DNA of 64,000 bases from Parcubacteria group bacterium (GCA_016181765.1 JACOYR010000001.1:157062-221061), one strand, 5' to 3'. Counted from the stretch's first letter, positions 6,546-39,495 are shown. Notes: generated by a model not told the origin, from the sequence alone. Numbers and translations: made by a program.

Positions 6546-8057
6546 CTATTTTATGAAAAATGGGCGGCCGCCATGCGGATAATACCGAATGGACGGGTAC
6601 ACTTCTCTTTCTGTAAAAAATTCATACACTGCCTTGCGCGCACCGGTCCAAGTTTCGTAGTCGTCAAGGATAACCATGCCCCCCGGAACCACTAAATCGT
6701 AGAGTTCGTCTAGGCAATACTTGGTTGATTCATAAATATCCGCATCAACAAACAGCAGCGCAATGTCCCCAATCTTCCGTTTTGCTTCTGGAACCGTATC
6801 CTGAAACCACCCCTTCTCGATGGAGACAATGTCGTCAACCCCAAGCGAATGCGTAATTTCCTGCGCCTTTTTATACTCTCCTTTGAACACGCCGGTTGTG
6901 CTTCGCTTGCCAAGATGCTCATCAGAAAATGGCACGCCTTTCTGAATTGCCTTATCCTTATCTGCTGTGCTGAATTCAGGCAGCCCTTCAAACGAATCAA
7001 ACTGCCAGACACGCCTCGTTTTTCCATGCTGTTTAACACGCCACGCCATTAATGCGCCCATACCGCCATTCCAGCATCCCATTTCTACAATGGAACCCGG
7101 TATGCCCTTTTTTTCTATATGATCAACCGCGTCGCATACTTGCCCCAGCACCCGATACCCGGCCAAAGTGTACGGAAATACCTTCTTGATAATTGGATAC
7201 AATAGTATCTTTTTGGGATCATTCCAAAAGAGCCGTCTGCATTTTCTTAATATATGTTTATTAATGTTTGATTCTCTCGGATTGATGCTTGAGCCCTTTG
7301 GCACAAAGTAATTATTGTCTTTAAAGTTACGCTCAATGAATCCCGCGGCGCGGGACAACTCTTCTTTGGTGTCAATCTCTATCCATCGCACCGGCCCGAG
7401 GTCAACCATCGTGGCCGGGTTATTGCCGCCCGATACATACTCCAAAATACCACGCTCAACAGACGCCTTCTGGTTGTTATCTTTCTTCAGAACATCATCC
7501 ACCTTCTCAAAAAATGCCGCAACCTGCCCCTCCGGACAATACCACATACTGTTAAAATAATAATCGTGCGTATCAAGCCCCTTAGACATGTTAATAACCG
7601 TATTGCGTTCATCCACTCGCACCATCATGTCCAGCTGCATTTCGTCCGATTCATGGCTCGTGCCGAATACTTTTATGCGGTCGTCAAGATGTTCTTTAAC
7701 AGTTCCGGCAATGCTTTTATCGTAAATATAATCACCATTGTACGTAATACATCCGCCGACTATTTCATCGCGCGCCTTCGCGAGGCTTGCAAGCGGTTCT
7801 GTTGTTGCGTATTCCGCATTCTCAACCAGCACAACATCCCTATCAATTGAAGCTACGGCCTCTTTCAGCTTGTCAAACTGGAACCCACCGACCACCACGA
7901 TTTTCTCGGGATTCAAAGCGCGCGCAAACGCGATTGAGTACTCAATAATAGGCCTACCACACACCATGGTGAGTGCTTTGGGCTGGTCTTTGGTCAGATC
8001 ACCCAGTCGCGTACCCATGCCAGCGGCAAGAATAACAGCGGTAAACTTATTCTCCAT
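6546..8057 (-). CDS. Fusion protein: N-terminal sugar/alcohol-phosphate nucleotidyltransferase (LicC/GlmU-NTP-transferase type) + C-terminal TylF/MycF-family (macrocin-type) O-methyltransferase
   Basis: N-terminus AVILAAGMGTRLGDLTKDQPKAL (NTP-transferase G-x-G-T-R motif). C-terminus MGCWNGGMG, QFDSFEGLPEF, VDADIYESTKYCLDELYDLVVPGGMVILDDY (TylF-like SAM binding and metal-dependent O-MT motifs). Confidence 0.7.
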   Translation of the reverse strand: MENKFTAVILAAGMGTRLGDLTKDQPKALTMVCGRPIIEYSIAFARALNPEKIVVVGGFQFDKLKEAVASIDRDVVLVENAEYATTEPLASLAKARDEIVGGCITYNGDYIYDKSIAGTVKEHLDDRIKVFGTSHESDEMQLDMMVRVDERNTVINMSKGLDTHDYYFNSMWYCPEGQVAAFFEKVDDVLKKDNNQKASVERGILEYVSGGNNPATMVDLGPVRWIEIDTKEELSRAAGFIERNFKDNNYFVPKGSSINPRESNINKHILRKCRRLFWNDPKKILLYPIIKKVFPYTLAGYRVLGQVCDAVDHIEKKGIPGSIVEMGCWNGGMGALMAWRVKQHGKTRRVWQFDSFEGLPEFSTADKDKAIQKGVPFSDEHLGKRSTTGVFKGEYKKAQEITHSLGVDDIVSIEKGWFQDTVPEAKRKIGDIALLFVDADIYESTKYCLDELYDLVVPGGMVILDDYETWTGARKAVYEFFTEREVYPSIRYYPHGGRPFFIK

Positions 8058-9888
8058 AGCTATTCTCTACTGCTTTCTTAATTAATTCTACGGGACATGG
8101 AATTCCATACTCGCCTTTTATTTTCCAAGCTTTGCCGATAGTATCGGGCAGAACGAACCGTACTTCGTTGGCTACTGTTTTTTTATTATACTTAAGCGCA
8201 TCAAGTATTGTTTGCGCATTAATGTACTCCGGAATTCTGCATGGCAACTGATACGCGCGGAAAATATCCTTATGCGCATCCACAGTATCTTCCCCGGCTT
8301 CCATTAAGGTTGCGAGTTCCGCCGAAACGCGCATGCCGATTGCAATTGATTGCCCGTGCGAGAGATCAAAACGGGAGAGAAACTCAATTGCGTGCCCCGC
8401 CTCATGGCCATACTGCAGAATCATAGCACGTTTGTGCTCGAACATGTCTTCGTGCATCAATTCAATTTTAAGTTGGATCGTCCGTTCAATGACTTCTTTT
8501 CGGAATGCAACATCAGCAACGTTGTCCGCGTTGTTAAGAAGATACTCATAAAAATCACGGTCCTGGCATATGGCATGCTTAATTGCTTCCGATATCCCGT
8601 CGCGAACCAACGAATCGGGGATGGATAGCGCCGGATCTATAACCACAAGGAGCGGCTGATAGTAGTTACCCACGAGATTTTTTCCTTTTTGCCCGTTAAT
8701 CCCTTGTTTTAAACTAATGGATACATCGAGCATATTCATAATCGTAGTCGGAAGATGTATGAGCCCGATTCCGCGGTACAAAGTGGCGGCCAGCAAGCCC
8801 GAAACATTCGCCACAACGCCGCCGCCTAGAGCGAAAATGATCGACTGCTCATCTATCCCGAGCGCGATAATTCTCTCTGCAAGATCATTGTATATTGACA
8901 TATTTTTACTCTGTTCCCCAGCCGGAATTACAAACTTGGCAACACGGTACCCCGCGTTCTGTAATTGCAAGAGCACGCTATCCCCAAAAAGAGCATCTAC
9001 ATTTTCGTCGGTTATAATAATGTGGTGCGATCCAGCGCGTTGGGGACCTATAATCCGAACCTTATCTAACTGTTTTAAAATTCCGGGTTCTATAATAATG
9101 CCGGTTTCTTGCGTCTTGGTATGTGTAAACGAAGTTGTAGGAACAATATCGTTAAGTGTCGCCAACTCGTGAGCGGGCCCTACATGCGCATGCGCGCGCC
9201 GCATAAACATTTCGGCGCGAAGCAAGGTGTCGGCAGCGTTTATATCGAACCACTGCATGTCCGGCAAAAATGAAATTTTTACCGGCGCCGCTTGATGCAG
9301 ATTCATAATCACTTCGGATGATTCTTTATGTGGATCCATGGCTCGAGCAATTTCCAAAAAATCAGTAATCCCTTTTTTCGTAAAATAATGAATTCCGGCA
9401 TGCAGGGCATCGTATGAAGCAATGTCTCTGCCCATGTTCAGCAGTTTTTTAAACCGTGTCTTGACAAAAACCGGAGCTCCGGAAAACTCGTTCTCTTTTT
9501 TGTGTTTAGCAACAAGCACTTCAACATCAGATTTTTTTGACAATGCGCGATAGGGATTATTTTCAAACACAAGGTCGCAGGAAGTAACAACGCATTCTGA
9601 TTCGACAAATTCCGCGGCACGGGAAAAAGAATGCAAAATACCGGCATCATCATTCGGCTCTTCGGCATATCGAATGTTTACATCCGTACCACTAAATTCA
9701 TTCACAACCGTTCGTACGAGAGCAGCATACGAGCCAACAACAATCACAATATCACGTATCCCGGCCTCCTGTAAAAGCTCAATCTGCCGAACAATAAGCG
9801 GCTTGCCGTACACCCGCAAAAGTGGCTTTGGCGTATCGAGCACATTAATTTTTTGGCCGCGGCCGGCAGCCAAAATAATTCCGATCAT
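8047..9888 (-). CDS. Fusion protein: N-terminal nucleotidyltransferase + C-terminal dehydroquinate-synthase-like (DHQS/sugar-phosphate-cyclase superfamily) domain
   Basis: N-terminus MIGIILAAGRGQKINVLDTPKPLL (NTP-transferase). C-terminus GGGVVANVSGLLAATLYRGIGLIHLPTT...KQGINGQKGKNLVGNYYQPLLVVIDP closely follows the DHQS/DOIS/EEVS nucleotide and metal-binding motifs (GGGV..D..G, PTT, KN-LIG-FYQP). Confidence 0.7.
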   Translation of the reverse strand: MIGIILAAGRGQKINVLDTPKPLLRVYGKPLIVRQIELLQEAGIRDIVIVVGSYAALVRTVVNEFSGTDVNIRYAEEPNDDAGILHSFSRAAEFVESECVVTSCDLVFENNPYRALSKKSDVEVLVAKHKKENEFSGAPVFVKTRFKKLLNMGRDIASYDALHAGIHYFTKKGITDFLEIARAMDPHKESSEVIMNLHQAAPVKISFLPDMQWFDINAADTLLRAEMFMRRAHAHVGPAHELATLNDIVPTTSFTHTKTQETGIIIEPGILKQLDKVRIIGPQRAGSHHIIITDENVDALFGDSVLLQLQNAGYRVAKFVIPAGEQSKNMSIYNDLAERIIALGIDEQSIIFALGGGVVANVSGLLAATLYRGIGLIHLPTTIMNMLDVSISLKQGINGQKGKNLVGNYYQPLLVVIDPALSIPDSLVRDGISEAIKHAICQDRDFYEYLLNNADNVADVAFRKEVIERTIQLKIELMHEDMFEHKRAMILQYGHEAGHAIEFLSRFDLSHGQSIAIGMRVSAELATLMEAGEDTVDAHKDIFRAYQLPCRIPEYINAQTILDALKYNKKTVANEVRFVLPDTIGKAWKIKGEYGIPCPVELIKKAVENSYGE

Positions 9889-10640
9889 ATACTCTTATTC
9901 ATGCGATTAATAAGCGCTACCTTCCTGCCTGACTGCAGCACTAGTATTCCCAAAAAGCCAATTGCATACATCCAGACAAAGATATCAATCCGGCCGAGAA
10001 GGGTAAAAACAAGCAGTGGTAGAACCATGCCAACCGAACTGAATATATTCCGGTTGACAATCCAATATGCCCAGCGGCTGAAAGACATTTTATTCGGGAC
10101 GGACTGCGCTGACGTGGCCCATGATTCAGATGCTTGTAAGGACATCAATCCATCCATTCTCACCTGTAAAAATCGGGTCAACAGCTTTGCCAATGTTCCA
10201 ACAAATCCGACAGCGAAGATGATTATATCCTGCGTTGCAATATACACGCCAATAGCAAGCGGCGCGAGCAGGAAAGCGTATTGCACGTCATGGCTGAACG
10301 GCTCCACAAACGCACTCCCCGCAAAGCCGGTATTTTTGCGCCAGCGAGCCACCTCCCCATCACAGGCATCTAGAATAATGGAACCATACACCAAACCAAC
10401 GCCGATCAATTGTTCCCGCAAACCGGAAAAAACAAACATCGAGATGCCCGCAAGATACACCAGAACGCCGATTACAGTAATCATGTTCGGCGTAATGGGG
10501 GTCGGGATAAGCAGCCGGGTGACGTAAATGGAAAAAAAACGGATTGTTCTTGCAACAAAGGTTTCGCGCGCCCCTTCTGGAGCTGTTTTTTGCAGCCGCT
10601 CGCGCAAATCGCGTATGTTAATTTTAGGCAATGTATTCAT
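9885..10640 (-). CDS. CDP-alcohol phosphotransferase (CDP-alcohol phosphatidyltransferase family) integral membrane enzyme
   Basis: Family signature D-x2-D-G-x2-A-R-x7,8-G-x3-G-x3-D is present as DACDGEVARWRKNTGFAGSAFVEPFSHD. Multiple TM helices. Confidence 0.75.
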   Translation of the reverse strand: MNTLPKINIRDLRERLQKTAPEGARETFVARTIRFFSIYVTRLLIPTPITPNMITVIGVLVYLAGISMFVFSGLREQLIGVGLVYGSIILDACDGEVARWRKNTGFAGSAFVEPFSHDVQYAFLLAPLAIGVYIATQDIIIFAVGFVGTLAKLLTRFLQVRMDGLMSLQASESWATSAQSVPNKMSFSRWAYWIVNRNIFSSVGMVLPLLVFTLLGRIDIFVWMYAIGFLGILVLQSGRKVALINRMNKSI

Positions 10641-11556
10641 AAAAATCTTGTTTTGAGACAGTAAAATTTTTGTAGCTGGAATAAAGATTATTCATTAAAA
10701 ATCTAAAATATCGCATTGTATTTTTCTTTAGAGATGCCATATAAAAGACATCAAATAAATGGCTGGCATACGCAAACATAATTGTTTTATATAATGCTTC
10801 ATATTCAAGGGCCGTAAGTTTTCGTACGCTTTTATACCCCCTATAAATATCTCTTGCGTATGTAAGATTCATCTTTTTATCGTACAGACCAAACCACATC
10901 ATCGTTTTTGCCAAATCAAGGACTAGCGGGCCAATATACGAATTATCAAAATCAATAATACCGTTCAGCCTTCCTTTGTAAAACAATACATTTTCCGGCT
11001 TTATATCAACATGAATTCCGCCGTTTGGCAGGCTTAAACTTAATCTGTATCTGATAATATCATCTTTGATTTCCTGAAATCTTCCCTTTAAAGGAATTCT
11101 GCTTTTAGCAACTGTCCGGGAGAATAAATTTATTTTGTTGCTCGTAAAGTTATAGTATTCATTTCTTTTACCCGACCATTTAAAATCCTTGGTCCTGCTG
11201 TGGATTTCGGCTAAGGTTTTACCTACATCTTTTCTTTGATTTAAAGTAATACTCTTTAAACTCTCTCCTGGAATATATTTATAAATAATTGCCGGGTACA
11301 AACCAACCTTAATAATCTCTTTGCCGCGTACAGGAACAATCTCCGGTACGGGCAACCCCGTAAGGCGCCCCAGTAGGGAAGTTTCAAAAGCAATCTCTTT
11401 TTCCTTTTTGTATCGGTATATTCTTAGTACATATTCCCCCTGTCCAGTTTTGACGTAATATGATTCATTAACTTGGCCGGACTTAAAACGCCTGATTTTT
11501 TTAACGTCTCCCAAATCCCAGCGCTTGCTTAAATTTTTAATTGAAGAGCTCATCAT
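10624..11556 (-). CDS. Aminoglycoside-phosphotransferase/choline-kinase-family small-molecule kinase
   Basis: Brenner motif GGIHVDIKPENVLF (H-x-D-x4-N) and IDFDNSY (DFG-like). About 310 aa, typical of APH/ChoK/homoserine-kinase-II enzymes. Confidence 0.65.
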   Translation of the reverse strand: MMSSSIKNLSKRWDLGDVKKIRRFKSGQVNESYYVKTGQGEYVLRIYRYKKEKEIAFETSLLGRLTGLPVPEIVPVRGKEIIKVGLYPAIIYKYIPGESLKSITLNQRKDVGKTLAEIHSRTKDFKWSGKRNEYYNFTSNKINLFSRTVAKSRIPLKGRFQEIKDDIIRYRLSLSLPNGGIHVDIKPENVLFYKGRLNGIIDFDNSYIGPLVLDLAKTMMWFGLYDKKMNLTYARDIYRGYKSVRKLTALEYEALYKTIMFAYASHLFDVFYMASLKKNTMRYFRFLMNNLYSSYKNFTVSKQDFYEYIA

Positions 11557-11560
11557 GCAA

Positions 11561-12583
11561 TTAAAATCTAATAACGCTTTTCAGTACTTTCCTGGTTTTA
11601 CCGGCGGCAAGAGCGTCCTCGATTTTTTCAAGCGGATAGACGTGATTTTTATCAAGGTAATCCCAGGCGTTTAATCTTTTATTTTTAATAAAATGAATAA
11701 TAGCATCGTGCGCTGAACCCTCGTCATAGGTGCGGCCATCGTAATAATTGAAATCTCCTTGCACTTGGGCTATGTCTATTTTGTAATCCAGATACTCATC
11801 CAAGCCATATACCCCTATTCTCCCGGATTTTTTGAGTAAAGGGAGTACATGGTTCAAAGTTTTGCTTTTGCCAACAGCATCAATAATGATATCTGCTCCA
11901 GAGTTCAATTCCGATGCGATGGCGCGAACATAGTCCGTGTCTTGGTAAGAAATGTACAGCTTTGTGTTTGCCTTGCTAAATAACTCTTTCCTGCCAGGAC
12001 TGCCGACTACGACTGGAATTAAACCAAGATTGCGAGCATGGTCTGCAAAAGCAAACGCAGTTGCTCCAGAACCGATGATTAAAACGACTTGTCCGGCTTT
12101 GGGTTCAATTCTCTTTAGGAACGAAAAGGTTTCGCGCCAGGTAATAATCATAGTTGACTCAATCGGGTCAAAACCAGCCGGCAAAACGCGGTGAATTGTT
12201 GATGCATGCCACAGAGACGCGTCCAGGCCGTCGTCGCGCATAGCTTGCCAGTCGGTAGCAATGCTCTTTTCGGCAAAAGCGCCCCACTGCATTTCATATC
12301 CGCTATCGCGAGGCAAACGATTGATTATCCGCGTTATAACATCACCTTTTTTAAAATTTTTGACTTTTTTCCCCCGTTCTATCACCTTACCTATACCCTC
12401 ATGCCCTAAAATTACCGGGTACCTAACATTATGATAGGGATCATTATGAACGATATGGAAATCAGTGGCGCCGCACACCGAAGCCGCCAGTGTTTCGCAC
12501 AAAACATCATAATCTCCGACAACCGGATCTGGCACGTCCTTGACAACAACTTCGCCTGGGGATTGTACAACTACGGCTTTCAT
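11561..12583 (-). CDS. Zinc-dependent alcohol/polyol dehydrogenase (MDR superfamily)
   Basis: MKAVVV...GDYDVLCETLAASVCGATD.H, GHEGIGKV, GDVI and Rossmann motif GSGATAFAFA. The coupling to the next gene by a start/stop ATGA overlap indicates an operon. Confidence 0.8.
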   Translation of the reverse strand: MKAVVVQSPGEVVVKDVPDPVVGDYDVLCETLAASVCGATDFHIVHNDPYHNVRYPVILGHEGIGKVIERGKKVKNFKKGDVITRIINRLPRDSGYEMQWGAFAEKSIATDWQAMRDDGLDASLWHASTIHRVLPAGFDPIESTMIITWRETFSFLKRIEPKAGQVVLIIGSGATAFAFADHARNLGLIPVVVGSPGRKELFSKANTKLYISYQDTDYVRAIASELNSGADIIIDAVGKSKTLNHVLPLLKKSGRIGVYGLDEYLDYKIDIAQVQGDFNYYDGRTYDEGSAHDAIIHFIKNKRLNAWDYLDKNHVYPLEKIEDALAAGKTRKVLKSVIRF

Positions 12584-13728
12584 ATAAAATCCATTATCAT
12601 TCGCGCGCGGCTATCCCAGGTATACTGCTTGACTGATTCGCGCGCCGCGCGCGGCAAATGTTTAATCTGATCCGGGTTGCGCATAACTCGATTAACTGAA
12701 CGGGCGAGATCATCCGGACTATCCGGCTCGCATAACAGCGCATTTTTATTGTGTGCTAAATACGGGGTAAAACTGGCGATACTACTGGCTACAATAGGCA
12801 CTCCAGACGCCATGTACTCAAACAGCTTAATGGGTGTGGTGTACTTCTGCGAGCGCTCCTCGTGCGCGGTATTAGGGAGTAGGAGCACATCAGCTGATTT
12901 TATAAATCGTATCACCTCCTTATGCGGCGTGAATGAGCGGAGGTACGTATTTGAAATACTGCATTCTTTGACGTACTGCGCTACTTTCGCGTAATCCTCT
13001 TTGGTGCCCCCTATCAAGACCACGGCAGCGCGAATGTCCTTGGCCGCATCCACAATCGTGTACACCCCTTTCCAACTATAGAAATGGCCAACGTACAGCG
13101 CGACCGGCATTCCAGGTTTGATTCCAAACTCCCGGTTCCAGAGTGATGCGTCCCGACTCACCGCATCGAACTCCGCGATATCAACACCATTCGGAGCACA
13201 TACGTACGATGCTTCTGGAATATCCATTGCGCGGTACTCATCAACCAACCCCCTTGCAACCACTACTTTTTTAGGGATGCGCTTTAAAAAAAACTCGTAC
13301 AATTCCTTAAATCGACTTTTCGGCTGATGATCTTCATATACAATCTGCTTCCCGGCGAGCGCCAGGAGAAAACTTGCAGTAATGTCGCGAGAGTATACGG
13401 TTCCGCGCCAGAACAGGCCGCAGAAAAACGCAACAAGCGCAAACCATACTCGCTGAAGCGGAAAATAGAGCGATTCACTTACGTACTGCAAAAGGCGGAC
13501 AACATCCGGCACGCGCGCGATGCTCATCAATCCGTCCTGAATATTGTAAAAATCCGCGATATTTGTTTTTATGTGGTTCTTCCGGCTCGGAATCAATAAT
13601 CTGACCGTACACCCTGCCCGCACGAGGGCTTCGATGGTTTTCGCAATCTGCAGACCATGCGCCTTTTCCGTGGGCATCCGCGAATTAGTGATATAGAGCA
13701 GGCGCATACGACCCCTTACTGCGGCCAC
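12580..13728 (-). CDS. Glycosyltransferase family 4 (GT-B fold)
   Basis: C-terminal EX7E-like region FEYMASGVPIVASS. N-terminal RLLYITNS...AHGLQIAKTIEAL. Confidence 0.7.
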   Translation of the reverse strand: MAAVRGRMRLLYITNSRMPTEKAHGLQIAKTIEALVRAGCTVRLLIPSRKNHIKTNIADFYNIQDGLMSIARVPDVVRLLQYVSESLYFPLQRVWFALVAFFCGLFWRGTVYSRDITASFLLALAGKQIVYEDHQPKSRFKELYEFFLKRIPKKVVVARGLVDEYRAMDIPEASYVCAPNGVDIAEFDAVSRDASLWNREFGIKPGMPVALYVGHFYSWKGVYTIVDAAKDIRAAVVLIGGTKEDYAKVAQYVKECSISNTYLRSFTPHKEVIRFIKSADVLLLPNTAHEERSQKYTTPIKLFEYMASGVPIVASSIASFTPYLAHNKNALLCEPDSPDDLARSVNRVMRNPDQIKHLPRAARESVKQYTWDSRARMIMDFI

Positions 13729-13970
13729 TTGTTGATGACATCCACAGCCCGCTTTTTAATTTTCATATATATATCTTCGGACTTCCTTTCTAATTCAGGT
13801 GATATGAGGCGCAAAATTTCCTTGCCCATAATACGATACTGTCCGCCGACCTTGTTGGCACGTAAAATTCCCCGTTTTAGTAGGCGTTTTACCGTACTTT
13901 CGCTAATCTTAAGCAAATCCTGGGCCTCCTGGGTCGTATAAACCGCATTTTCTTTGATTTCTTGAACCAT
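13716..13970 (-). CDS. Small helix-turn-helix DNA-binding protein (excisionase/MerR-type HTH)
   Basis: YTTQEAQDLLKISESTVKRLLKRGILRANKVGGQYRI is a classic excisionase-family HTH. It is the first gene behind a promoter region that contains tandem direct repeats. Confidence 0.6.
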   Translation of the reverse strand: MVQEIKENAVYTTQEAQDLLKISESTVKRLLKRGILRANKVGGQYRIMGKEILRLISPELERKSEDIYMKIKKRAVDVINKWPQ

Positions 13971-14090: not shown

Positions 14091-14750
14091 CTATTGCCGA
14101 CACTCTTTTTCGATATCCACAGCTATGTCTTCCGGAGTTAATTTTTCCGCAAAAGACCCCTCCATCTCAAGCATTACCCGGGGAAAATCTTTTGAAAGGC
14201 CCTTTCCTGTGGCATTTGGGGAATATTGGGTTACCATAATTCCCCTATATTTAAGCTCAAGCCCAAGCGCCTCGCACAACCCAACCAAAGCATGCTTTGC
14301 CGTAAGATATGGGCCCAGACGCGGCATGGAATGGTTCGTAATTGCCGAACCTAATACAAAAATTCGGCGCAATGGGTGCTTGTGGGCAAGCAAGGCCTGC
14401 GCGACATGCCACAATCCTTTTACCTGTGTCTGCCAGTGCGCCTCATAATCCTCCCAACTCTCTTGAGAAAACTTTTTAAACTCAATCGGAGCGGCAACCG
14501 AGTATACGACATTATTAACCGGATCGCAGTCCGACAATACTGAATCAACGGCATCTGGGTCGGTTACATCAAGCGTCATAACCGATCCAACAATGCCTTT
14601 TGGCGGGCGGTACTCCCCTACCCCTGAATGTGTAAGCACCAAACTATGGCCTGTCTTAAAAAGGCGCTCACTGATAACTTTCCCAAAGGAGCTGGACGCG
14701 CCTATGATGAGCGTGGTTTGTATACTATTATCCGCCATAATGTCTATCAC
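14091..14750 (-). CDS. Short-chain dehydrogenase/reductase (SDR)
   Basis: N-terminal TLIIGASSSFGKVISERL (glycine-rich NAD(P)-binding motif). About 219 aa. Confidence 0.7.
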   Translation of the reverse strand: MIDIMADNSIQTTLIIGASSSFGKVISERLFKTGHSLVLTHSGVGEYRPPKGIVGSVMTLDVTDPDAVDSVLSDCDPVNNVVYSVAAPIEFKKFSQESWEDYEAHWQTQVKGLWHVAQALLAHKHPLRRIFVLGSAITNHSMPRLGPYLTAKHALVGLCEALGLELKYRGIMVTQYSPNATGKGLSKDFPRVMLEMEGSFAEKLTPEDIAVDIEKECRQ

Positions 14751-15150
14751 CTACTTTTGCCTCTCCTAAAACTGCGATTTCGCCCTGCGCATTGGTAATG
14801 GTAGTTTTAATCCGCAGCAGGGACACGGATTCAAGTTTTTCGGTTATCTCCCCGGCGACCGTAACTACATCTCCGACCAACACCGGCTTCCGGAATTCGG
14901 CGGTTTGCGAAAGGTACATATTATCATTCCCCAAAAAATACATGCCCACGAGCCGGGAAAATAAAGAAGCAAGAAGCATACCATGCGCCACGCAATCATC
15001 AAATCCCTTTTCCTGTGCAAAAACGCGGTCAGCATGCAGAAGATTCTTGTCGCCGGTAAGCGACGCAAAATCCGTTACCATGCCCCGCGTTATAGTAATG
15101 TTAAATGATTCCCGGTCGCCGACGTTACTATTGCCCCAATTAGCACTCAT
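14728..15150 (-). CDS. MaoC-like (R)-specific dehydratase, hot-dog fold
   Basis: FASLTGDKNLLHADRVFAQEKGFDDCVAHGMLLASLFSRLVG matches the MaoC/PhaJ hydratase motif. The ORF in the track starts further upstream (15261); the likely true start is the internal Met (MSANWG...). Confidence 0.7.
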   Translation of the reverse strand: MSANWGNSNVGDRESFNITITRGMVTDFASLTGDKNLLHADRVFAQEKGFDDCVAHGMLLASLFSRLVGMYFLGNDNMYLSQTAEFRKPVLVGDVVTVAGEITEKLESVSLLRIKTTITNAQGEIAVLGEAKVGDRHYGG

Positions 15151-15379
15151 ACTCAACAGCGTATTTATCAAGCGCCGCTTTAATGTCTGCGACCTTTTTA
15201 ACGGAAACAACTTCGTCAATAGTAAACGTAACCCCATAAGATTTTTCAAGCTCTGCCACAATCATGAGTCCGTTAAACGAATCCCAGCTCGGCGTGTTAT
15301 CTACAGATGTTTCTTCTGTAATGTCCTCTGCGGAGATGCCGAGAATCTCCGACAAAATCAGATATAATTTTTTATTCAT
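15140..15379 (-). CDS. Acyl carrier protein (DltC/ACP-like)
   Basis: LSEILGISAEDITEETSVDNTPSWDSFNGLMIVAELEKSYGV. The phosphopantetheine-attachment Ser lies in the DSF/DSL context. About 80 aa from the internal Met. Confidence 0.8.
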   Translation of the reverse strand: MNKKLYLILSEILGISAEDITEETSVDNTPSWDSFNGLMIVAELEKSYGVTFTIDEVVSVKKVADIKAALDKYAVEYEC

Positions 15380-16872
15380 AAGGCGCAACCGATGTGCTAA
15401 TAAAATCCAGCGGCTCAAACGTAAAATCACTTAAATCGTGTTCCCAGATGTCTTCCTCTCCGGATGCGCCTGCTTGTGCTACAAACCCGAAATCTCGGTA
15501 AAAGTCACGGACCTGGCTATTTTTCCGGGTTGGCAGATATTTCCCAACCACCTTTTTTGCCGCAATCTCTTTAAGCTGGTTCAAGACCGTCCCAAAAAAC
15601 TGGCACTCTATCCTCTTTCCTAGAATTCTACACGAAAGCAGCAAAGTGTCTATCTCCCAGCACCTCTTCTTGGTACCGGCGCGTGGTAAGATTGAACTGG
15701 TTAGTTTTTTGGGTAAGCTGCGAAGCGCGGGCAACATGTTCGTCGAGGATCGGGTGGATGTTAATGCGCATCCGGAGCCCCCGCAAAAAACTTTCAAGGT
15801 CAATAGATTTCTCTTTAAGCTTTCTCCTTTTTTTTTCGTCGGCATACATATGCGCTTTTTTGCGGTCCTCGTCTGTAATGCTGAACCGTGTGAATCCTTT
15901 ATACGAACGCAGCGCAGACACGTACTCCCGCGGATCGCGCGGAAGATCAATCACCGCCATCTCGGGAAGCGCGGACGCAACCAGTTCCCGATTGCGCGGA
16001 TCATCGTCAATAAACACCATGCTCTCAAGGCCGATGTTCAGCTCCTGCGCCAGCTCCTGCATGTTCTGCGCCTTGTTGCTCCAGTTAATGCGGGCTGCCG
16101 CAAAATCGTCTTCCGTAAGCAGCATATGCCTATGCTTCGCAAACACCTCCGCAACGTCGGCTTCGTTATTCCTGCTGTTGATGGCCAATATAATGCCGCT
16201 CTCCTGTAATTGCTTAATGGCACGCTGGAATTCGTAAAAAGGCGATCCCGCGCCACTCGGCGAAAGCGCGATGCCGGAGAGCCCATCTTCTCCGATAACA
16301 CCTCCCCAGAGCGTATTATCCAAATCCAGCACCAGACACTTTTTTGTTTTCCCGGCAAGCGGCACCAGATATGCGACAAGCTCGTTTGCAAAAAGCTCAA
16401 ACGCATGCGGCGCGAGCCGCATATCGGCAAGCTCGCGGTACTTTGTGTTCCAGTAGGCGTCCTTACCGAGAGACGCAATCCAACGGTTGAAATCAAAAAC
16501 ATGCACCTGCGTATTGTTTTTAAACCGGCGCACAAGCTCCTCGTTTACCGCTGTATCTGCCGCAGATTCGTCAACTTTGGTGCATACAATTATTTTTGCC
16601 GAAGTTTTAAAGCACAGCTGGTCAATCAGGGATATTTGGCTCACGGCATCCTCAAAATCCACTACCAGATAAATAATATCCAGTTTAAACGCGTACAACT
16701 CCTCTCCTAAAATTTCCTGCTGCCACTGCCCATACTCCCCGAGGTACGCCTGGATTGGGATGCCATAACGCGCGGCCTGTTGGCGCAGCTTTTCTTCCAC
16801 CCCTTTAACGGTGAAATTAGAAAGCAACGCTGCATGGTATGTTGTTTTATGCATAGCGCGCCGCAACCGCAA
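15372..16872 (-). CDS. FkbH-like HAD-superfamily enzyme (glyceryl-ACP loading type), with an apparent frameshift near 15630
   Basis: Hallmark CLVLDLDNTLWGGVIGEDG (HAD DxD motif in FkbH context). The 414-aa ORF stops at 15628 and protein-like sequence continues in another frame (…LGKRIECQFFGTVLNQLKEIAAKKVVGKY…) down to 15372. Confidence 0.6.
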
Positions 16873-17182
16873 CCGCGGTTTCGTCGGTGTGGCTAATGCT
16901 TATATAGAAGTGTTTGCTCGTCTCCCCGTCGATGCAGGCACGGGGCGTGCCGTCCTTTTGGTGCGCAACGGAAATGCGGTCAAACCTGCCGACCAGATCC
17001 CCGCCCGCAGCTTTCATAAGCGCTTCTTTCGCGGCGTACAACCCGGCCAAACTCGCGGACGGATTCGGGCGGTTGAATGCGTATTCCCATTCCTCGTGCG
17101 TAAAAAACTTTTTCCAATGCGGAAAATCACCCTGCGCAAGCTTGATAAAACGGCGGACAGCAATAATGTCAATTCCTATCAT
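16847..17182 (-). CDS. acpS: Holo-[acyl-carrier-protein] synthase (4'-phosphopantetheinyl transferase)
   Basis: MIGIDIIAVRRF...FTHEEWEYA...LAGLYAAKEALMKAAG...ISISHTDETAVAVA shows the full AcpS motif set. 111 aa. Confidence 0.85.
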   Translation of the reverse strand: MIGIDIIAVRRFIKLAQGDFPHWKKFFTHEEWEYAFNRPNPSASLAGLYAAKEALMKAAGGDLVGRFDRISVAHQKDGTPRACIDGETSKHFYISISHTDETAVAVAARYA

Positions 17183-17218
17183 ATGCAGTTCTATTTAAAA
17201 TATAACACACTGCGCCAA

Positions 17219-18409
17219 TCAGTCCAGCGCGGCCTCCCAATACATTTCAGCGGGCGTGGTGCGCGGATCCTCCAACACATTCGTAAGCCGGGCGCGCAGG
17301 GATGCGCAATCTTCAAATATGTCCCCGCTGCACAATGCATCGAGTATGTGCGTAAACAAAATGGATATGCCCGTCTCGGTTGCATGGAACCCGTCCAGCA
17401 TGTAAGTATCTTCAAGCCCCCATGCGCTGATGTCCGAAAAATCGAAAAACGGGAATCCGCGCTTCGTAAAAACCGGCGGAATTTGTTCCGAGAAAGCGCT
17501 TGCAAACGGAGCATAATGCGAATGTATAATCGCCTGGTATGCGTCGCTCGCAAACGGACCCGCAACTCCAATAACCGTTATGCCGCGCTTTTGGGCTTTT
17601 TCCAGAAACTCATCCAGCAACGCAACGCCGCGCTCATCAAAAGAGCTTTCAAGCTCAAAAGGCGGGTATCCGTTTTCCGCGCGCTCCACCACGGGGTTGG
17701 TTTCCCGGTCAACATATGAGGGATCCTCACGCATCATGCGCACATAGGTGCCGTACTGCCGGCTCCCGTCCCGCCTGAATCCGTCGCCGTTCTCAATAGC
17801 CGCAATGCCGATTGCGTGATTATTGGTAAGTGGATCCTTTCTGGTAAATACCGCAGCCACATAAGAAGGGTCTTTCAATAACGCAGTAAACAAATGCCGG
17901 CTTGCGTAGAGGTAGGAACGCCAATTGTATGCCTCTTCCCCTCTCACATGCTCTCTTGCAAACGCCCGCGTCTCAATGCGGGAGCTGTCAAACCACCACA
18001 TGTCCACCCCCAGGATAATAATATCCGGCGCATCTTCTTCTTTAAGAATATCAATAAAATCAATTAGATCCCTGAGGCTGATAAGCATATTGCCTGCATT
18101 ATAAAAAATATACGCGCCGCCAAACACCTCCTGTCGCAGTTCCAAAACACGGGAGGAACCAAGCGCAAGAACATCAACATCCTGCTGCTGTACATTGAAA
18201 TACTTGTACTTTGCGGTTTCTTCGGAAACAACCCGCCGCGCGAACAAATATTCCTCGGGCCGCGCCTGTTTGTCTACAACACTCTGCAATGTAGTAACTT
18301 CACCGGAGGCAATTGCCAAAAAAATTCCAAAACCCACCAGAGCAAAAACCGGGGCAAAAAACAATGCCATGGTTTTAAGGAACGCTCGGATATCTACAGT
18401 GTATTGCAT
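17219..18409 (-). CDS. DltD-like / SGNH-type extracytoplasmic O-acyltransferase partner protein (membrane-anchored)
   Basis: N-terminal TM helix, ALGSSRV serine motif and C-terminal YMLDGFHATETG (D-x2-H of SGNH/DltD-like triad). Sits immediately next to the MBOAT gene. Confidence 0.5.
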   Translation of the reverse strand: MQYTVDIRAFLKTMALFFAPVFALVGFGIFLAIASGEVTTLQSVVDKQARPEEYLFARRVVSEETAKYKYFNVQQQDVDVLALGSSRVLELRQEVFGGAYIFYNAGNMLISLRDLIDFIDILKEEDAPDIIILGVDMWWFDSSRIETRAFAREHVRGEEAYNWRSYLYASRHLFTALLKDPSYVAAVFTRKDPLTNNHAIGIAAIENGDGFRRDGSRQYGTYVRMMREDPSYVDRETNPVVERAENGYPPFELESSFDERGVALLDEFLEKAQKRGITVIGVAGPFASDAYQAIIHSHYAPFASAFSEQIPPVFTKRGFPFFDFSDISAWGLEDTYMLDGFHATETGISILFTHILDALCSGDIFEDCASLRARLTNVLEDPRTTPAEMYWEAALD

Positions 18410-18418
18410 ATATATATC

Positions 18419-19861
18419 CTAAAACTGGAAATAGATAAACGGATGGTAATCGTAATTACCCAAAAGGAGTAAACACAGAATAATGGCGTAGTAAATTCCC
18501 CACCGAACCAACACGGGCGCCTTTTCAATGCGCAGCACATGCTCTTTGGTGCGCTGTTTCCATTCCACCAGCACAAACAACACCGCCATGATTGTTTTTT
18601 TAACAAACATGGGAGCGAAAAATATGGCAACCATCTCAGGAGATGCGTCGGCGGCTATGGTGCCAAAAATATGCAGCGCTTCTGAAAGAGACTGCGCCCT
18701 AAAAAAAACAAACCCAACCAGCACCATGCAAAAGGTAAGTGAAATTTGCAAAAATCCGCCCATCCGATCCCAGTACTTTTTAATTGCATGGTATACAATA
18801 ATAAATACAGCCTGTGAAAATCCGAACACAATAAACGTCCAGGCAGCTCCGTGCCATAACCCCAACAGAGAAAGCCCAATAATAGTGGCAAGATAAAAAG
18901 AAACGCTATGGCGAACTGCCGGAGCAAAACGGGCAATGTCCTTAATGCGCGAAATGCGCATATATAGTGGAACAAAAATAAAATCCTGAAACCACGAGGT
19001 GAGTGTAATGTGCCATCGGCTCCAGAATTCTGAAATGTTTTTTGAAAAATACGGATACCGGAAGTTTCTGCTTAAATCAATCCCGAACAAGCGAGCCGTG
19101 CCAACTGCTATGTCCGAATACCCGGAAAAGTCGCAGTATATCTGGACCGCAAAAAAAACAGTAGCCGCAAAAAGCTGGGGCCCGGCAATAGTCTCCGGGT
19201 TCCTGTATGCGAGCTCAACCACTGCGGCTATGTTATCAGCAATCACCGCTTTCTTAAAAAGCCCCCATAGTATTTGGCGCACGCCATCATAGGCTTTTGC
19301 CAATTCAAAAACACGCTTTTCCTTAAACTGCCCCAACAAATGGGAGGCGCGCTCAATGGGGCCCGCAACCAGCTGGGGAAAAAACGAAACAAACACGAAA
19401 AACTGCACCCAGTCACGGGTTGGGCGTATTTTCCCTTGGTACAGCTCAATGCTGTAGCTTAGTGTTTGGAACGTATAGAAACTGATTCCTACCGGCAGTA
19501 TAATATGCAGTGTGGAAAGCGACGCATCCGTGAATCCGGCGACTGCGAGCAGGCTTTGCAGTGATTCCACGAAAAAATTAAAGTACTTAAAAAATCCCAA
19601 GAGCGAAAGGTGCACCAAAATACTTACCAGAAACCAGTGCTTTTTTGCGCGGCGCGTTTGTGCGCTATAAAGCTTTTGGCCCACAATAAAATCCGTTGCG
19701 CTTGAAATGAGGATGAGCGACAAGAACCGCCAATCCCACCATGCGTAAAACACGTAACTCGAAAAGAGCAGAAATAGATTCTGCTCTTTTCTGTGCATCC
19801 TCCAGTACGCCAAAAATACAATCACGAGAAAAAGAAAAAAAAGTGGTGAGTTAAAGCTCAT
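18419..19861 (-). CDS. Membrane-bound O-acyltransferase (MBOAT; AlgI/DltB family)
   Basis: DFSGYSDIAVGTARLFGIDLSRNFRYPYFSKNISEFWSRWHITLTSWFQDFIFVPLY matches the AlgI/DltB signature including the catalytic His. About 10 TM helices. Confidence 0.85.
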   Translation of the reverse strand: MSFNSPLFFLFLVIVFLAYWRMHRKEQNLFLLFSSYVFYAWWDWRFLSLILISSATDFIVGQKLYSAQTRRAKKHWFLVSILVHLSLLGFFKYFNFFVESLQSLLAVAGFTDASLSTLHIILPVGISFYTFQTLSYSIELYQGKIRPTRDWVQFFVFVSFFPQLVAGPIERASHLLGQFKEKRVFELAKAYDGVRQILWGLFKKAVIADNIAAVVELAYRNPETIAGPQLFAATVFFAVQIYCDFSGYSDIAVGTARLFGIDLSRNFRYPYFSKNISEFWSRWHITLTSWFQDFIFVPLYMRISRIKDIARFAPAVRHSVSFYLATIIGLSLLGLWHGAAWTFIVFGFSQAVFIIVYHAIKKYWDRMGGFLQISLTFCMVLVGFVFFRAQSLSEALHIFGTIAADASPEMVAIFFAPMFVKKTIMAVLFVLVEWKQRTKEHVLRIEKAPVLVRWGIYYAIILCLLLLGNYDYHPFIYFQF

Positions 19862-19874
19862 GGGTTGTGGTTAA

Positions 19875-20981
19875 TCATGGAGCGTACCTATTGCATGCCG
19901 CAATGACTGTATCTATCGCCTCTCTGCTTAATGTCGGATAGAGGGGAATGCTGATGGCTGTTGCGTGTATTGCTTCGCTCACCGGATACTGCTGGGTGGC
20001 CCAGTCGGCAAATGCTGCTTGTTTGTGGGGAGAAACCGGATAGTGAATAATAGTCCCAATCCCTTGCGTTGACAAATACTCCTGAAACGCATCCCTCTCT
20101 TTTGTGCGTACCACGAATAGGTGCCACACATGCGATTCATCGCTCTCTGTAGAGGGCAGTATTAATCTTTGGTTTGCAATACGTTCCGCGTATTGCCTGG
20201 CGATGGCGCGCCTTTTTTGGTTATCTGCATCCAAGTATTTAAGTTTAATGGACAATATAGCGGCGTGTAGTTCGTCCAATCGGCTGTTCATCCCTTGGTA
20301 CTGGTTGTAGTATTTTTTATGGCTCCCGTAGTTTCTTAAGGCGCGAAGTGTTTCGGCGAGTGCATCATCATTCGTAGTAATCGCGCCCGCATCGCCTAAG
20401 GCCCCTAAATTCTTTCCGGGATAAAAACTGAATCCCGCGGCATCTCCCAAGGAACCGGCTTTCTTGCCTTGATATGCAGCTCCGTGTGCCTGTGCCGCAT
20501 CTTCTATAATTTTCAAACCGTGCTTATCCGCAATCTCCTGTATCTGTGCCGAATAACCAACCAGGCCATATAAATGAACCACAAGTATGGCTTTTGTTTT
20601 TTTGGTTATATACTGTTCAATGAGACTAGCGTCAAGATTATACGTATTAATATCCGGCTCAACCAAAACCGGCTTGAGCCGATTTTCCGTAATTGCAAGA
20701 ATGGTTGCGATGTACGTGTTCGCAGGCACGATGATTTCGTCGCCTTCCTTAAATATACCAAGCTCTTTGTACGCGCGGATGATCAAAACAAGAGCTTCCA
20801 ACCCGTTGCCCACGCCAACGCAGTATGTGGTCCCGCAATACTCGGCAAATTCTTTTTCGAATGCGGAAACCCGCTCGCCGAGGATATAATGGCCTGAATC
20901 AATGACTGAAGTGACGGAACCAATTATCTCATCCCGATGCCTGGCATTAATTTCTTTTAGGTTTAAAAATGGAATCTTCAT
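19875..20981 (-). CDS. DegT/DnrJ/EryC1/StrS-family PLP-dependent sugar aminotransferase (ArnB/WecE-like)
   Basis: [21 protein letters not shown] and the overall DegT architecture. 368 aa. Confidence 0.85.
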
Positions 20982-34027: not shown

Positions 34028-35165
34028 GCGCTTGGTTGATTAATTTTTGATACTCGTCCTCGTACTGCCGAGCTATCACATTCCAACTGAATTGCCGCTT
34101 AACAACATCCCGTCCCGCAGGCTGCAATGCATCTTTATAACTATGCGGCTGGCTCCTTATATCGTTGATTTTCTTGGCAACTCCCCGCGCATTGTTTTCT
34201 GTAATTGCCTCAACAATGCCTTCCTTAATCAAATCCTTGATGCCGCCAACCGGCGCGCCAATCACCGCCAATCCCGCGGCGGTTGCCTCCAGAAACGAAT
34301 TTCCAAGCCCCTCTGACCGCGAAGGGCGAACGAACGCGTCAGACGACCACAATAGTTCCGGGAGGCTCTCGTGGCTAACATGCCCAAGAAACAAAACTCT
34401 GTTTCCGAACTTTTCAGCTTGAGCCTTCAACTTCTGCTCGTCTTTTCCGGTACCTGCGATAACCAGCTTCACCTGCTCCGGAACATGCTCCATTGCATCA
34501 ATTAGAATATCAATGCCATTCTTGCGCACCAGCCGCGAAGTAGTGATGACAACAAACTCATTTTCTTTGATGCCCCAACTTTTACGAATTTCCCGTTGCC
34601 GCTCTTCGCTGACTTCTTGAAAAAAACGCTCGTCAACCGCGTTTGGTATAATGACAATATCCTCTACCCTGGCTCCGTACTTTTGAGCCCGCTTACTAAG
34701 CCACGTGCTGATGGCCGTAATCTTGTCCGTTTTGGTGTATATTTGCGCGTACGTCTTTTTCCAGAACCAGGTCCGCTTGTTGATGAACTCGTCCGGATCC
34801 CCGCTCTGCAAGGTCAGAAGGTAGGGGACGGATGGACAGCGCCTCTTGAATAACAAGGCCGCAAAGCCCGCGTATGTCTCAAGCACCGCGTGAATGATAT
34901 CGTACGGCTTTTCGACGTGCTTGCGCAGCGCGAGACGAGCCGCGCGCCAGGGGTACAGCCACTTGTCCAACAATGAACGGCCGCTTCCCACGCGGTACAC
35001 GTTCACGTTTCCGATGCGCTCATGCCGGGGCAAGCGCACATTCAAACGCGCCGTAAACAAATCAAACTCGTACCCTTCTAGGCGGTTGGTAACCTCTTTG
35101 ATGGCAACCTCTGCCCCGCCAATGAAGGGATCATAGGTCACTGAAAATAGTGCTACGCGTTTCAT
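34011..35165 (-). CDS. Glycosyltransferase family 4
   Basis: MKRVALFSVTYDPFIGGAEVAIKE...; EGLGNSFLEATAAGLAVIGAPVGG. Confidence 0.75.
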   Translation of the reverse strand: MKRVALFSVTYDPFIGGAEVAIKEVTNRLEGYEFDLFTARLNVRLPRHERIGNVNVYRVGSGRSLLDKWLYPWRAARLALRKHVEKPYDIIHAVLETYAGFAALLFKRRCPSVPYLLTLQSGDPDEFINKRTWFWKKTYAQIYTKTDKITAISTWLSKRAQKYGARVEDIVIIPNAVDERFFQEVSEERQREIRKSWGIKENEFVVITTSRLVRKNGIDILIDAMEHVPEQVKLVIAGTGKDEQKLKAQAEKFGNRVLFLGHVSHESLPELLWSSDAFVRPSRSEGLGNSFLEATAAGLAVIGAPVGGIKDLIKEGIVEAITENNARGVAKKINDIRSQPHSYKDALQPAGRDVVKRQFSWNVIARQYEDEYQKLINQAHVPAR

Positions 35166-35938
35166 AGGGTGCGGTACTTCTGATTCATCTCATCCACCTT
35201 CTCAAGCAGCCCAACGTCAACGCCTTTTTTCTTTCCGAGTTCAACCAATGCGAGAAGGTCTTTGGGCAAGCACTTGCCCCCATACCCGCGGTACCCGCCG
35301 TGCAGCACGTCAAAGTGCGAATCAATAATGCGCTGGTCCGACACAAACGCTTCCTTCACTTCGTTGTAATCAACCCCAAGTGATTGGCATAAATCATACA
35401 GCATATTACCGAACACGACCTTGGTCGCATAAAATGTGTTGACAGCGTACTTGACGAGTTCCGTAGAAGCGGCGGACATGATTTTTTTGTACGGCGCATG
35501 TGGAAGCATGTCTAAAACTGATCGGCTGACATCGCGGCTCGTTGACGTATAGCCCACTAATTGTTTATCAGGGTTTTTGAAATCTTGTTCTGCCGTCGCC
35601 TGCGTCAGAAATTCCGGATTGAACAGAACTTTAAGATGCTGATATTTTTGTTGAAAATAATCCGTGGTGCCAGGCACGCATGTTGACTTGATGACGACTA
35701 TGCGCGGCTCGTTGATTGAACCGATTTTTTCAAACACGTCATCAAGCGCGCTCCGGTTGAACCCGTTTTCGTACGGCGTGGGCACGCACACGAAAATCAA
35801 CTCTTGCTTGAGCACCTCCTCCAAGGGATCCATAAGCTTGAATTTGTCGTACACATTGGATCCTCCAAAAAAGGAGGCAACACTGCTTCCCACAAAACCG
35901 CCTCCCATGATCCCTATTGTATACTTATGATTTGACAT
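35162..35938 (-). CDS. Nucleotide-sugar dehydrogenase (UDP-Glc/UDP-ManNAc dehydrogenase family) lacking the C-terminal UDP-binding domain
   Basis: N-terminal GIMGGGFVGSS Rossmann motif, then LIFVCVPTP and the central dimerisation domain (NMLYDLCQSLGVDYNEVKEAF). The ORF ends after about 260 aa and abuts the next gene, so the C-terminal domain of about 100 aa is absent. Confidence 0.55.
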   Translation of the reverse strand: MSNHKYTIGIMGGGFVGSSVASFFGGSNVYDKFKLMDPLEEVLKQELIFVCVPTPYENGFNRSALDDVFEKIGSINEPRIVVIKSTCVPGTTDYFQQKYQHLKVLFNPEFLTQATAEQDFKNPDKQLVGYTSTSRDVSRSVLDMLPHAPYKKIMSAASTELVKYAVNTFYATKVVFGNMLYDLCQSLGVDYNEVKEAFVSDQRIIDSHFDVLHGGYRGYGGKCLPKDLLALVELGKKKGVDVGLLEKVDEMNQKYRTL

Positions 35939-36003
35939 GATACGATGAAAATTGTTGACATGCAGTAATAGTACCAGAAATGCCCTAAAAAACAAGCAGA
36001 TTC

Positions 36004-39389: not shown

Positions 39390-39412
39390 GGGTTCATCAT
39401 AGCAGGAGCAAC

Positions 39413-39462
39413 AAAAAAAAGCACCCCCTCCTCTCGCGAGAGGAGGGGGGCTTTTTGCAATC
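39413..39462. terminator. Strong bidirectional rho-independent terminator (perfect 12-bp GC-rich inverted repeat flanked by A-run and T-run)
   Basis: aaaaaaaaGCACCCCCTCCTCTCGCGAGAGGAGGGGGGCttttt. It lies downstream of the giant surface-protein gene on the minus strand. Confidence 0.85.
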
Positions 39463-39495
39463 AGTTGTGTAGTAACTGACTGGAGAGAGAATCCC

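Follow-up and report, generated by a model that had tools for sequence, protein, structure and literature searches.

A candidate acyl-ACP-fed MBOAT-SGNH esterification system in a Parcubacteria glycan locus

Seven adjacent genes in a 64,000-nucleotide stretch of DNA from Parcubacteria group bacterium (GCA_016181765.1, JACOYR010000001.1:157062-221061; the whole stretch is referred to below as the window) encode a membrane-bound O-acyltransferase (MBOAT), a membrane-anchored SGNH-fold protein, an AcpS-type phosphopantetheinyl transferase (PPTase), an FkbH-family enzyme of the haloacid dehalogenase (HAD) type, a small acyl carrier protein (ACP), a MaoC-type dehydratase and a short-chain dehydrogenase/reductase (SDR). 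We somewhat favour the reading that the locus encodes an MBOAT-SGNH system that is fed by acyl-ACP and esterifies an extracytoplasmic glycan. The evidence for this reading is comparative genomics throughout, including the recurrence of FkbH and MBOAT genes side by side in at least seven lineages.

Seven co-directional genes and the route they may encode

The cluster lies inside a glycan locus of ~35 kb in a metagenome-assembled genome of Parcubacteria, a lineage of the Candidate Phyla Radiation (CPR). All seven open reading frames (ORFs) are on the minus strand between 14091 and 19861, in the order given above, and their spacing is operon-like: the co-directional genes are either separated by gaps of 9, 36 and 13 nt or overlap by 8-11 nt. 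A preliminary description of the region had assigned the seven genes to these families; all of the ORFs are present where it placed them, and hidden Markov model searches, together with a fold comparison in the case of the SGNH protein, confirm the names (Table 1).

Table 1. Coordinates of the acylation genes and of the two genes that border them, counted from the first nucleotide of the window.
Feature	Position	Strand	Basis and remarks
MBOAT, 480 aa, PatA/AlgI-type	18419..19861	-	PF03062 E 3e-12, 47 bits vs cut-off 27
Membrane-anchored SGNH-fold acyltransferase, DltD-like, 396 aa	17219..18409	-	fold comparison; closest solved structure DltD
AcpS-type 4'-phosphopantetheinyl transferase, 111 aa	16847..17182	-	PF01648 E 7e-16; TIGR00556 64.6 bits vs cut-off 45
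FkbH-family HAD-IIIC enzyme, interrupted in window	15372..16854	-	TIGR01686 242 bits vs cut-off 146.65
Stand-alone ACP, 79 aa	15140..15379	-	PF00550 (PP-binding) 24.7 bits vs cut-off 20.8; gene model from L006
MaoC-type (R)-specific hydratase/dehydratase, 140 aa	14728..15150	-	PF01575 E 2.6e-18
SDR, 215 aa	14091..14738	-	adh_short E 2e-15; KR domain E 4e-8
DegT/PseC-type sugar aminotransferase (context)	19875..20981	-	TIGR03588 209 bits, below cut-off; directly upstream of MBOAT
HTH_17 gene (context)	13716..13970	-	downstream edge of five-gene cassette; 90% identity to L001

The closest solved MBOAT to that of the window is DltB, to which it aligns (6bug) at E 3e-26, with His284 (RWH) and His337 (WHG) matching the DltB His residues. 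The score against the DltB model TIGR04091 is 163 bits, below the cut-off of 375, and the protein ends in ...PFIYFQF, that is, in a fused FxYxxF acyl-shuttle motif (F475-I-Y477-F-Q-F480). DltB takes D-alanine from the carrier DltC and transfers it to the Tyr in the FxYxxF of the microprotein DltX; MBOATs of the PatA/AlgI type bear FxYxxF themselves as a fused C-terminal end, on two additional helices, and use acetyl-CoA with no similar carrier protein (PMC12148441). Because of its length of 480 aa and its fused FIYFQF end, we classify the window MBOAT as PatA/AlgI-type and not DltB-type. Of the 'AlgI/DltB-type' label in the preliminary description the first half therefore stands and the second does not, and its view that D-alanine activation had been replaced in the cluster describes an analogy with Dlt, not a descent from it. 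Feeding by an ACP would make the window MBOAT a hybrid between these two modes. The tunnel of the PatA MBOAT has been modelled holding the phosphopantetheine arm of acetyl-CoA (PMC12148441), and since an ACP carries the same arm, we count this in favour of an ACP-fed MBOAT.

The SGNH protein, which is identical to HYT31_00910 [Parcubacteria group bacterium], has a transmembrane (TM) helix at residues 7-35 and a putative triad of Ser86 (GSSR), Asp339 and His342 (DGFH). Across 13 homologs Gly84, Ser86 (GSSR) and His342 are invariant, and Asp339 (DGxH) is nearly so. The protein itself has neither a Pfam match nor a meaningful sequence match in PDB, and fold comparison alone was able to place it; it does have the SGNH/DltD-like fold on which the preliminary description depended. 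Some members of its family weakly match the DltD, DUF1574 or GDSL models, and a profile search at E<=1e-3 recovers 5077 representative clusters, which makes the family a large one.

Turning to the five genes that follow, the phosphopantetheine site of the ACP is Ser34 in WDSF, and the protein is not a DltC ortholog. MaoC carries the hydratase-2 motif GD34KNLLH39, and the SDR the motifs GASSSFG and Y144-x3-K148. In FkbH the phosphatase motif DLDNT occupies residues 183-187 of a 414-aa ORF, with DDD in the same frame, so that FkbH has the phosphatase nucleophile (the first Asp of the DLDNT motif) that the preliminary description called for. Asp168, Asp170 and Cys436 are invariant in an alignment of 25 homologs. 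No adenylating enzyme (DltA-type D-alanine:carrier-protein ligase) was found among the locus genes, and neither FkbK- or FkbI-type dehydrogenases nor an FkbG O-methyltransferase stand beside the window FkbH and ACP, whose neighbours are MaoC and the SDR.

The preliminary description, while right about the family, missed a frameshifting deletion in FkbH. At window position 15662/15663 the reading frame is interrupted: 110 bp are missing. The N-terminal and HAD part lies in ORF 15628-16872, whose frame runs down to a stop at 15628 and which matches profile positions 2-223 of TIGR01686 (score in Table 1); the C-terminal Cys domain lies in another frame, in ORF 15372-15950 (38 bits, profile positions 257-321). 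Because of the deletion the C-terminal domain (LSCRILG; Cys codon 15630-15632) is thus out of frame in the window copy. An intact 521-aa FkbH allele, P0014, in which the catalytic residues are conserved, is encoded on contig L006 of the SRR12113430 assembly. By blastn the 21.5 kb of L006 align to the window without a single mismatch, the 110-bp segment being the sole difference, and the intact allele exists in the same population. The ends of the deletion show no microhomology; either an assembly error or a real variant could explain it.

These components can be arranged into a route. AcpS would turn the 79-aa ACP into holo-ACP, as expected from family membership, and FkbH, through its HAD site (DxDxT) and C-terminal Cys, would move a glyceryl unit from 1,3-bisphosphoglycerate to the ACP by homology to FkbH-type loaders. 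MaoC may then take off the 3-hydroxyl, turning glyceryl-ACP into 2-hydroxyacryloyl/pyruvoyl-ACP, which the SDR could reduce to lactyl-ACP. By analogy with PatA and with DltB/DltX, the phosphopantetheine arm would deliver the acyl group to the MBOAT by way of the membrane tunnel of the enzyme, His337 passing it to Tyr477 of the MBOAT's own FIYFQF; the SGNH protein (Ser86/Asp339/His342) would accept it and hand it on to a hydroxyl of the surface glycan outside the membrane. The acyl group is predicted to be lactyl, pyruvoyl or glyceryl. We arrive at lactyl from the chemistry and from the FkbH-DH-KR loading modules of polyketide synthases, which have been proposed to make lactate starters. FkbH domains have been described as loading unusual units onto ACPs, glyceryl-S-ACP among them (PMC4552970).

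Donor and output modules together and apart

We surveyed 160 FkbH loci, 80 from one-genome-per-species contigs and 80 from metagenomes, counting neighbours by tblastn within the retrieved flanks. An ACP adjoins FkbH in 107 of the 160, and MaoC does so in 46. An MBOAT is found in 18 loci (6 genome and 12 metagenome), 13 of which have a recognisable SGNH-like partner as well. The 18 resolve into one deep archaeal-type clade and at least six independent lineages. Within the deep clade, which includes Nitrosopelagicus, FkbH proteins are 52-81% and MBOATs 46-88% identical, from which we conclude that the two co-diverge there; its partner proteins are remote homologs of the window SGNH family (hhalign probability 95%, E 2.5e-8, 240 columns including the GSS block). 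Micrarchaeota, Acidobacteriaceae, Thalassospiraceae and Polyangiaceae are among the independent lineages. Gene order varies among the 18 loci: SGNH-MBOAT-FkbH-ACP-MaoC, SGNH-MBOAT-ACP-MaoC opposite FkbH, MBOAT-ACP-MaoC-FkbH and FkbH-ACP-MBOAT-TM protein are all represented. All seven components recur on a groundwater contig, L126, where a 317-aa TM/GSS protein, MBOAT, FkbH, ACP, MaoC, SDR and AcpS are co-directional; its FkbH is 36% and its MBOAT 31% identical to those of the window.

The company that FkbH keeps differs according to whether an MBOAT is present. MaoC accompanies 14 of the 18 MBOAT-linked loci vs 32 of the 142 others (Fisher p = 6e-6), and a Hexapep, GNAT, KAS III or unknown 376-aa family protein occurs in none of the 18 vs 66 of the 142 (p = 5e-5). 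Judged from these gene neighbourhoods, the output transferases look like alternatives to one another. Some MBOAT-linked loci, e.g. L141, show no SDR by tblastn, and the ester may for this reason differ between lineages. The fused shuttle is common as well: we examined 16 FkbH-linked MBOATs and found FxYxxF at the end of 14, the exceptions being L104, which runs off its contig, and L049, which is complete at 390 aa.

The L049 protein (L049:707-1879), from Micrarchaeota, stands next to AcpS-FkbH-ACP-MaoC and has a DltB-like architecture; a separate DltX-like microprotein might exist for it. A 468-aa membrane protein in L013 was considered as a divergent MBOAT and rejected: it has no shuttle motif and looks Wzy/ligase-like. 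The commonest neighbours of FkbH/ACP are two others, a Glyoxalase_4 protein (57 of 160 loci, often less than 20 nt from FkbH), which could be a thioester epimerase, and the ~376-aa family already mentioned, which has no Pfam match, lies usually ~300 nt downstream (30 of 160) and may be a dedicated acyltransferase. Named genome loci with AcpS beside FkbH are mostly from CPR and archaea, namely Patescibacteria, Saccharibacteria, Nanoarchaeota, Micrarchaeota, Nitrosopumilales, Asgard and Bathyarchaeia. To our knowledge, these lineages lack ACP-dependent fatty-acid synthesis, so that the cassette would bring its own PPTase.

The junction between the MBOAT-SGNH pair and the cassette is conserved in an independent sample: on the 2.7-kb contig L176 we find MBOAT-SGNH-AcpS with the 36-nt spacer unchanged and 85, 80 and 79% identity, respectively. 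Nei-Gojobori dN/dS between the two is 0.08 for the MBOAT, 0.14 for the SGNH protein and 0.19 for AcpS, the last of which indicates that the cassette AcpS is under purifying selection there.

A second set of observations weighs against feeding of the window MBOAT by the ACP. L001, a related Parcubacteria contig, has the order of the window, DegT-MBOAT-SGNH-HTH_17-GT-ADH-kinase onward, with identities of 73% (DegT), 63% (MBOAT), 48% (SGNH) and 90% (HTH), and is without the five genes from AcpS through SDR, so that HTH_17 comes directly after MBOAT-SGNH. In L003, L093 and L095, too, members of the SGNH family directly follow an MBOAT with no ACP nearby; the MBOATs of all four contigs end in FxYxxF. 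(In L004 and L094 the SGNH family members stand alone.) The cassette is likewise found by itself: its closest relatives, with FkbH 60-66% identical, read [AcpS]-FkbH-(TylF-like methyltransferase)-ACP-MaoC-SDR, and where the contig reaches far enough a 364-aa GNAT follows; an MBOAT is present in none of them. Most of them sit in nonulosonic-acid loci with NeuB, NeuC or CMP-sugar synthetase. With the other FkbH-linked MBOATs the window MBOAT shares only 28-36% identity, and fused-shuttle MBOATs that have been characterised use acyl-CoA without a carrier protein (PMC12148441). Exclusivity of the output transferases is not absolute either, as ORF clustering recovers one hexapeptide acyltransferase in an MBOAT locus, L041. 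The window copy of FkbH, as sequenced, would be inactive. Finally, promoter and terminator scans over 13-22 kb gave counts at chance level and are uninformative on co-transcription.

We considered whether the window MBOAT belongs to a specialised ACP-linked clade and rejected this, its identity to FkbH-linked MBOATs comparing with 63% and 47% to cassette-less ones. The 64-kb window holds no homolog of the 364-aa GNAT and no NeuB. In two of the nonulosonic-acid loci (L090:3102-3863 and L091:9531-10292) a 253-aa TylF-like O-methyltransferase reminiscent of FkbG lies between FkbH and ACP, which suggests an O-methylated C3 acyl group there. Given that L001 has the MBOAT-SGNH pair without the cassette and that relatives of the cassette occur without an MBOAT, the cassette is a portable acyl-donor module and the pair a portable output module.

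Alternatively, the window could hold two independent neighbours, an acetyl-CoA-using O-acetyltransferase of the PatAB/AlgIJ type and a cassette that feeds another, cytoplasmic transferase, encoded elsewhere or unrecognisable; that transferase might, for instance, N-acylate the amino sugar from the adjacent DegT and 4,6-dehydratase. We regard this as rather unlikely. It would account for the order in L001, for an SGNH family that usually accompanies an MBOAT and no ACP, for the fused FxYxxF architecture of acyl-CoA users in the MBOAT, for the GNAT fed by the closest cassette relatives, for the 142 of 160 FkbH loci without an MBOAT in the retrieved flanks, and for a locus that makes an amino sugar and has no visible N-acyltransferase. 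However, no other recognisable acyltransferase was found in the glycan locus of the window (5-37 kb), nor an alternative transferase anywhere in the 64 kb. Furthermore, the adjacency of FkbH and MBOAT across at least seven lineages comes in rearranged orders, among them ACP-MaoC directly downstream of the MBOAT, the MBOAT is tied statistically to MaoC and, by tblastn, exclusive of other transferase types, and the full set of seven genes appears again in L126. That the cassette is instead a decaying insertion which came without its usual GNAT, leaving plain MBOAT-SGNH acylation as the sole function, is quite improbable: the deletion that puts the Cys domain out of the FkbH frame, the missing GNAT and the cassette-less L001 would fit, but the intact allele in otherwise identical L006, the four remaining cassette genes with their catalytic motifs kept, the conserved and selected AcpS beside SGNH in the second sample, and a deletion without microhomology that could be an assembly error all speak against decay.

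We consider a functional coupling of FkbH/ACP to MBOAT-SGNH likely for the architecture in general. For the window itself our confidence in an ACP-fed MBOAT is lower because of the cassette-less L001, the non-specialised position of the MBOAT and the broken FkbH. The proposal in the preliminary description that an FkbH-loaded ACP feeds the MBOAT and the DltD-like protein gains comparative support from the 18 MBOAT-linked loci and L126, and has to be qualified in that the two halves are separable, as in L001.

The surrounding glycan locus

Beyond the acylation genes, the locus encodes glycosyltransferases, methyltransferases, a 4,6-dehydratase, the DegT aminotransferase, GtrA, UDP-GlcNAc 2-epimerase and an ABC exporter. 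Both genes bordering the cluster have their counterparts in L001, where DegT also adjoins MBOAT-SGNH. The GC content of the cassette, 0.49 vs 0.46-0.48 in its flanks, gives no usable signal of horizontal transfer. On a larger scale GC is 0.41-0.51 over the glycan locus (window 1-36000) and rises to 0.51-0.59 in 36000-64000; the whole glycan island is compositionally distinct.

Three further features of the window deserve mention. A sub-cluster at 6546-12583 (minus strand), shared with L001, encodes a Zn-dependent alcohol dehydrogenase, an APH/homoserine-kinase-like kinase, a CDP-alcohol phosphotransferase-like membrane protein and two fusion proteins in which an NTP-transferase is joined to an AroB-like sugar-phosphate cyclase (TIGR01357 257 bits, below cut-off) and to a TylF-type methyltransferase, respectively. 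This gene content suggests that a nucleotide-activated cyclitol or polyol phosphate substituent is made, an unusual feature in a glycan locus of the CPR. The UDP-glucose/GDP-mannose dehydrogenase ORF at 35162-35995 (minus) has just 277 aa and may be a gene fragment, since its C-terminal UDP-binding domain is missing, as is part of the N-terminal one. Just past the glycan locus, 37104-43563 (minus) holds two very large ORFs of 862 and 1355 aa.

Relation to known systems and significance

Among known systems, the MBOAT-SGNH O-acetyltransferases PatA/PatB, AlgI/AlgJ(X) and WssH/WssI share with the window the invariant His of the MBOAT, two extra C-terminal helices ending in FxYxxF (PMC12148441), an adjacent membrane-anchored SGNH partner with a Ser/His/Asp triad and a polysaccharide locus as setting. 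They differ in that they use acetyl-CoA without a carrier, whereas the window pair adjoins an ACP, loading and tailoring enzymes and a PPTase. With Dlt the window shares the logic, in which an acyl-phosphopantetheine thioester on a carrier passes to the MBOAT, a Tyr shuttle, an SGNH protein and the polymer, as well as a small operon-encoded carrier protein with a phosphopantetheine Ser. In contrast to Dlt it has no DltA-type ligase and would load through an FkbH-type HAD/Cys enzyme; its shuttle is fused to a 480-aa MBOAT with no DltX, while DltB has ~400 aa and no fused shuttle; and in place of D-alanine it would transfer a neutral C3 hydroxy- or oxo-acid.

The donor half resembles the glyceryl-ACP loaders of polyketide pathways (FkbH, OzmB, Tmn16): the window protein scores above the TIGR01686 cut-off, has DxDxT and, in the intact allele, the invariant Cys, and stands next door to an ACP and to a dehydratase and a reductase that could turn glyceryl into lactyl. 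Unlike those pathways, the window has no polyketide synthase or nonribosomal peptide synthetase and no FkbK/FkbI/FkbG-type enzymes; the dehydratase is MaoC-type, the SDR free-standing and the setting a CPR glycan locus. FkbH genes of other glycan loci, such as cj1302 of the Campylobacter jejuni flagellar glycosylation island, likewise belong to a putative FkbH/ACP donor module embedded in glycosylation loci, but their partner is a GNAT, hexapeptide, KAS III or unknown 376-aa protein and not an MBOAT. In our literature searches cj1302, uncharacterised, is the sole FkbH gene that we found mentioned in a glycan locus (PMC7099621). The searches returned no description of an FkbH/ACP-fed MBOAT-SGNH system; FkbH and MBOAT were met together only in papers on aeruginosin/suomilide, where they act on different moieties. 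The component families and the MBOAT-SGNH logic are already known, and a feeding by FkbH/ACP would probably be new.

More broadly, and more tentatively than for the locus itself, we suggest a widespread, undescribed envelope acylation in bacteria and archaea, in which a fused-shuttle PatA/AlgI-type MBOAT would be fed by an FkbH-loaded, MaoC/SDR-tailored ACP bearing a glycolysis-derived C3 unit and would give O-lactyl, O-pyruvoyl or O-glyceryl esters. Systems of this class would extend over Parcubacteria, Nitrosopumilales-type archaea, Micrarchaeota, Acidobacteriota, Alphaproteobacteria and Myxococcota. Apart from Dlt, MBOAT-SGNH pathways have been stated to lack a carrier protein and to use acyl-CoA (PMC12148441); the recurrent FkbH/ACP-MBOAT-SGNH architecture would be a counter-example to this carrier-free rule, and would mean that acyl-ACP can serve fused-shuttle MBOATs as donor. 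It would also assign a role to some of the very large HAD-IIIC/FkbH-like gene family in glycan loci, and explain why cassettes carry an AcpS of their own in lineages that, as far as we know, have no ACP-dependent fatty-acid synthesis. The proposal predicts that CPR bacteria and ammonia-oxidising archaea carry a new, non-acetyl ester, of a C3 hydroxy- or oxo-acid, on their cell surfaces. If it is true, Dlt would be joined by a second MBOAT-SGNH pathway that depends on a carrier protein, and archaea would have their first.

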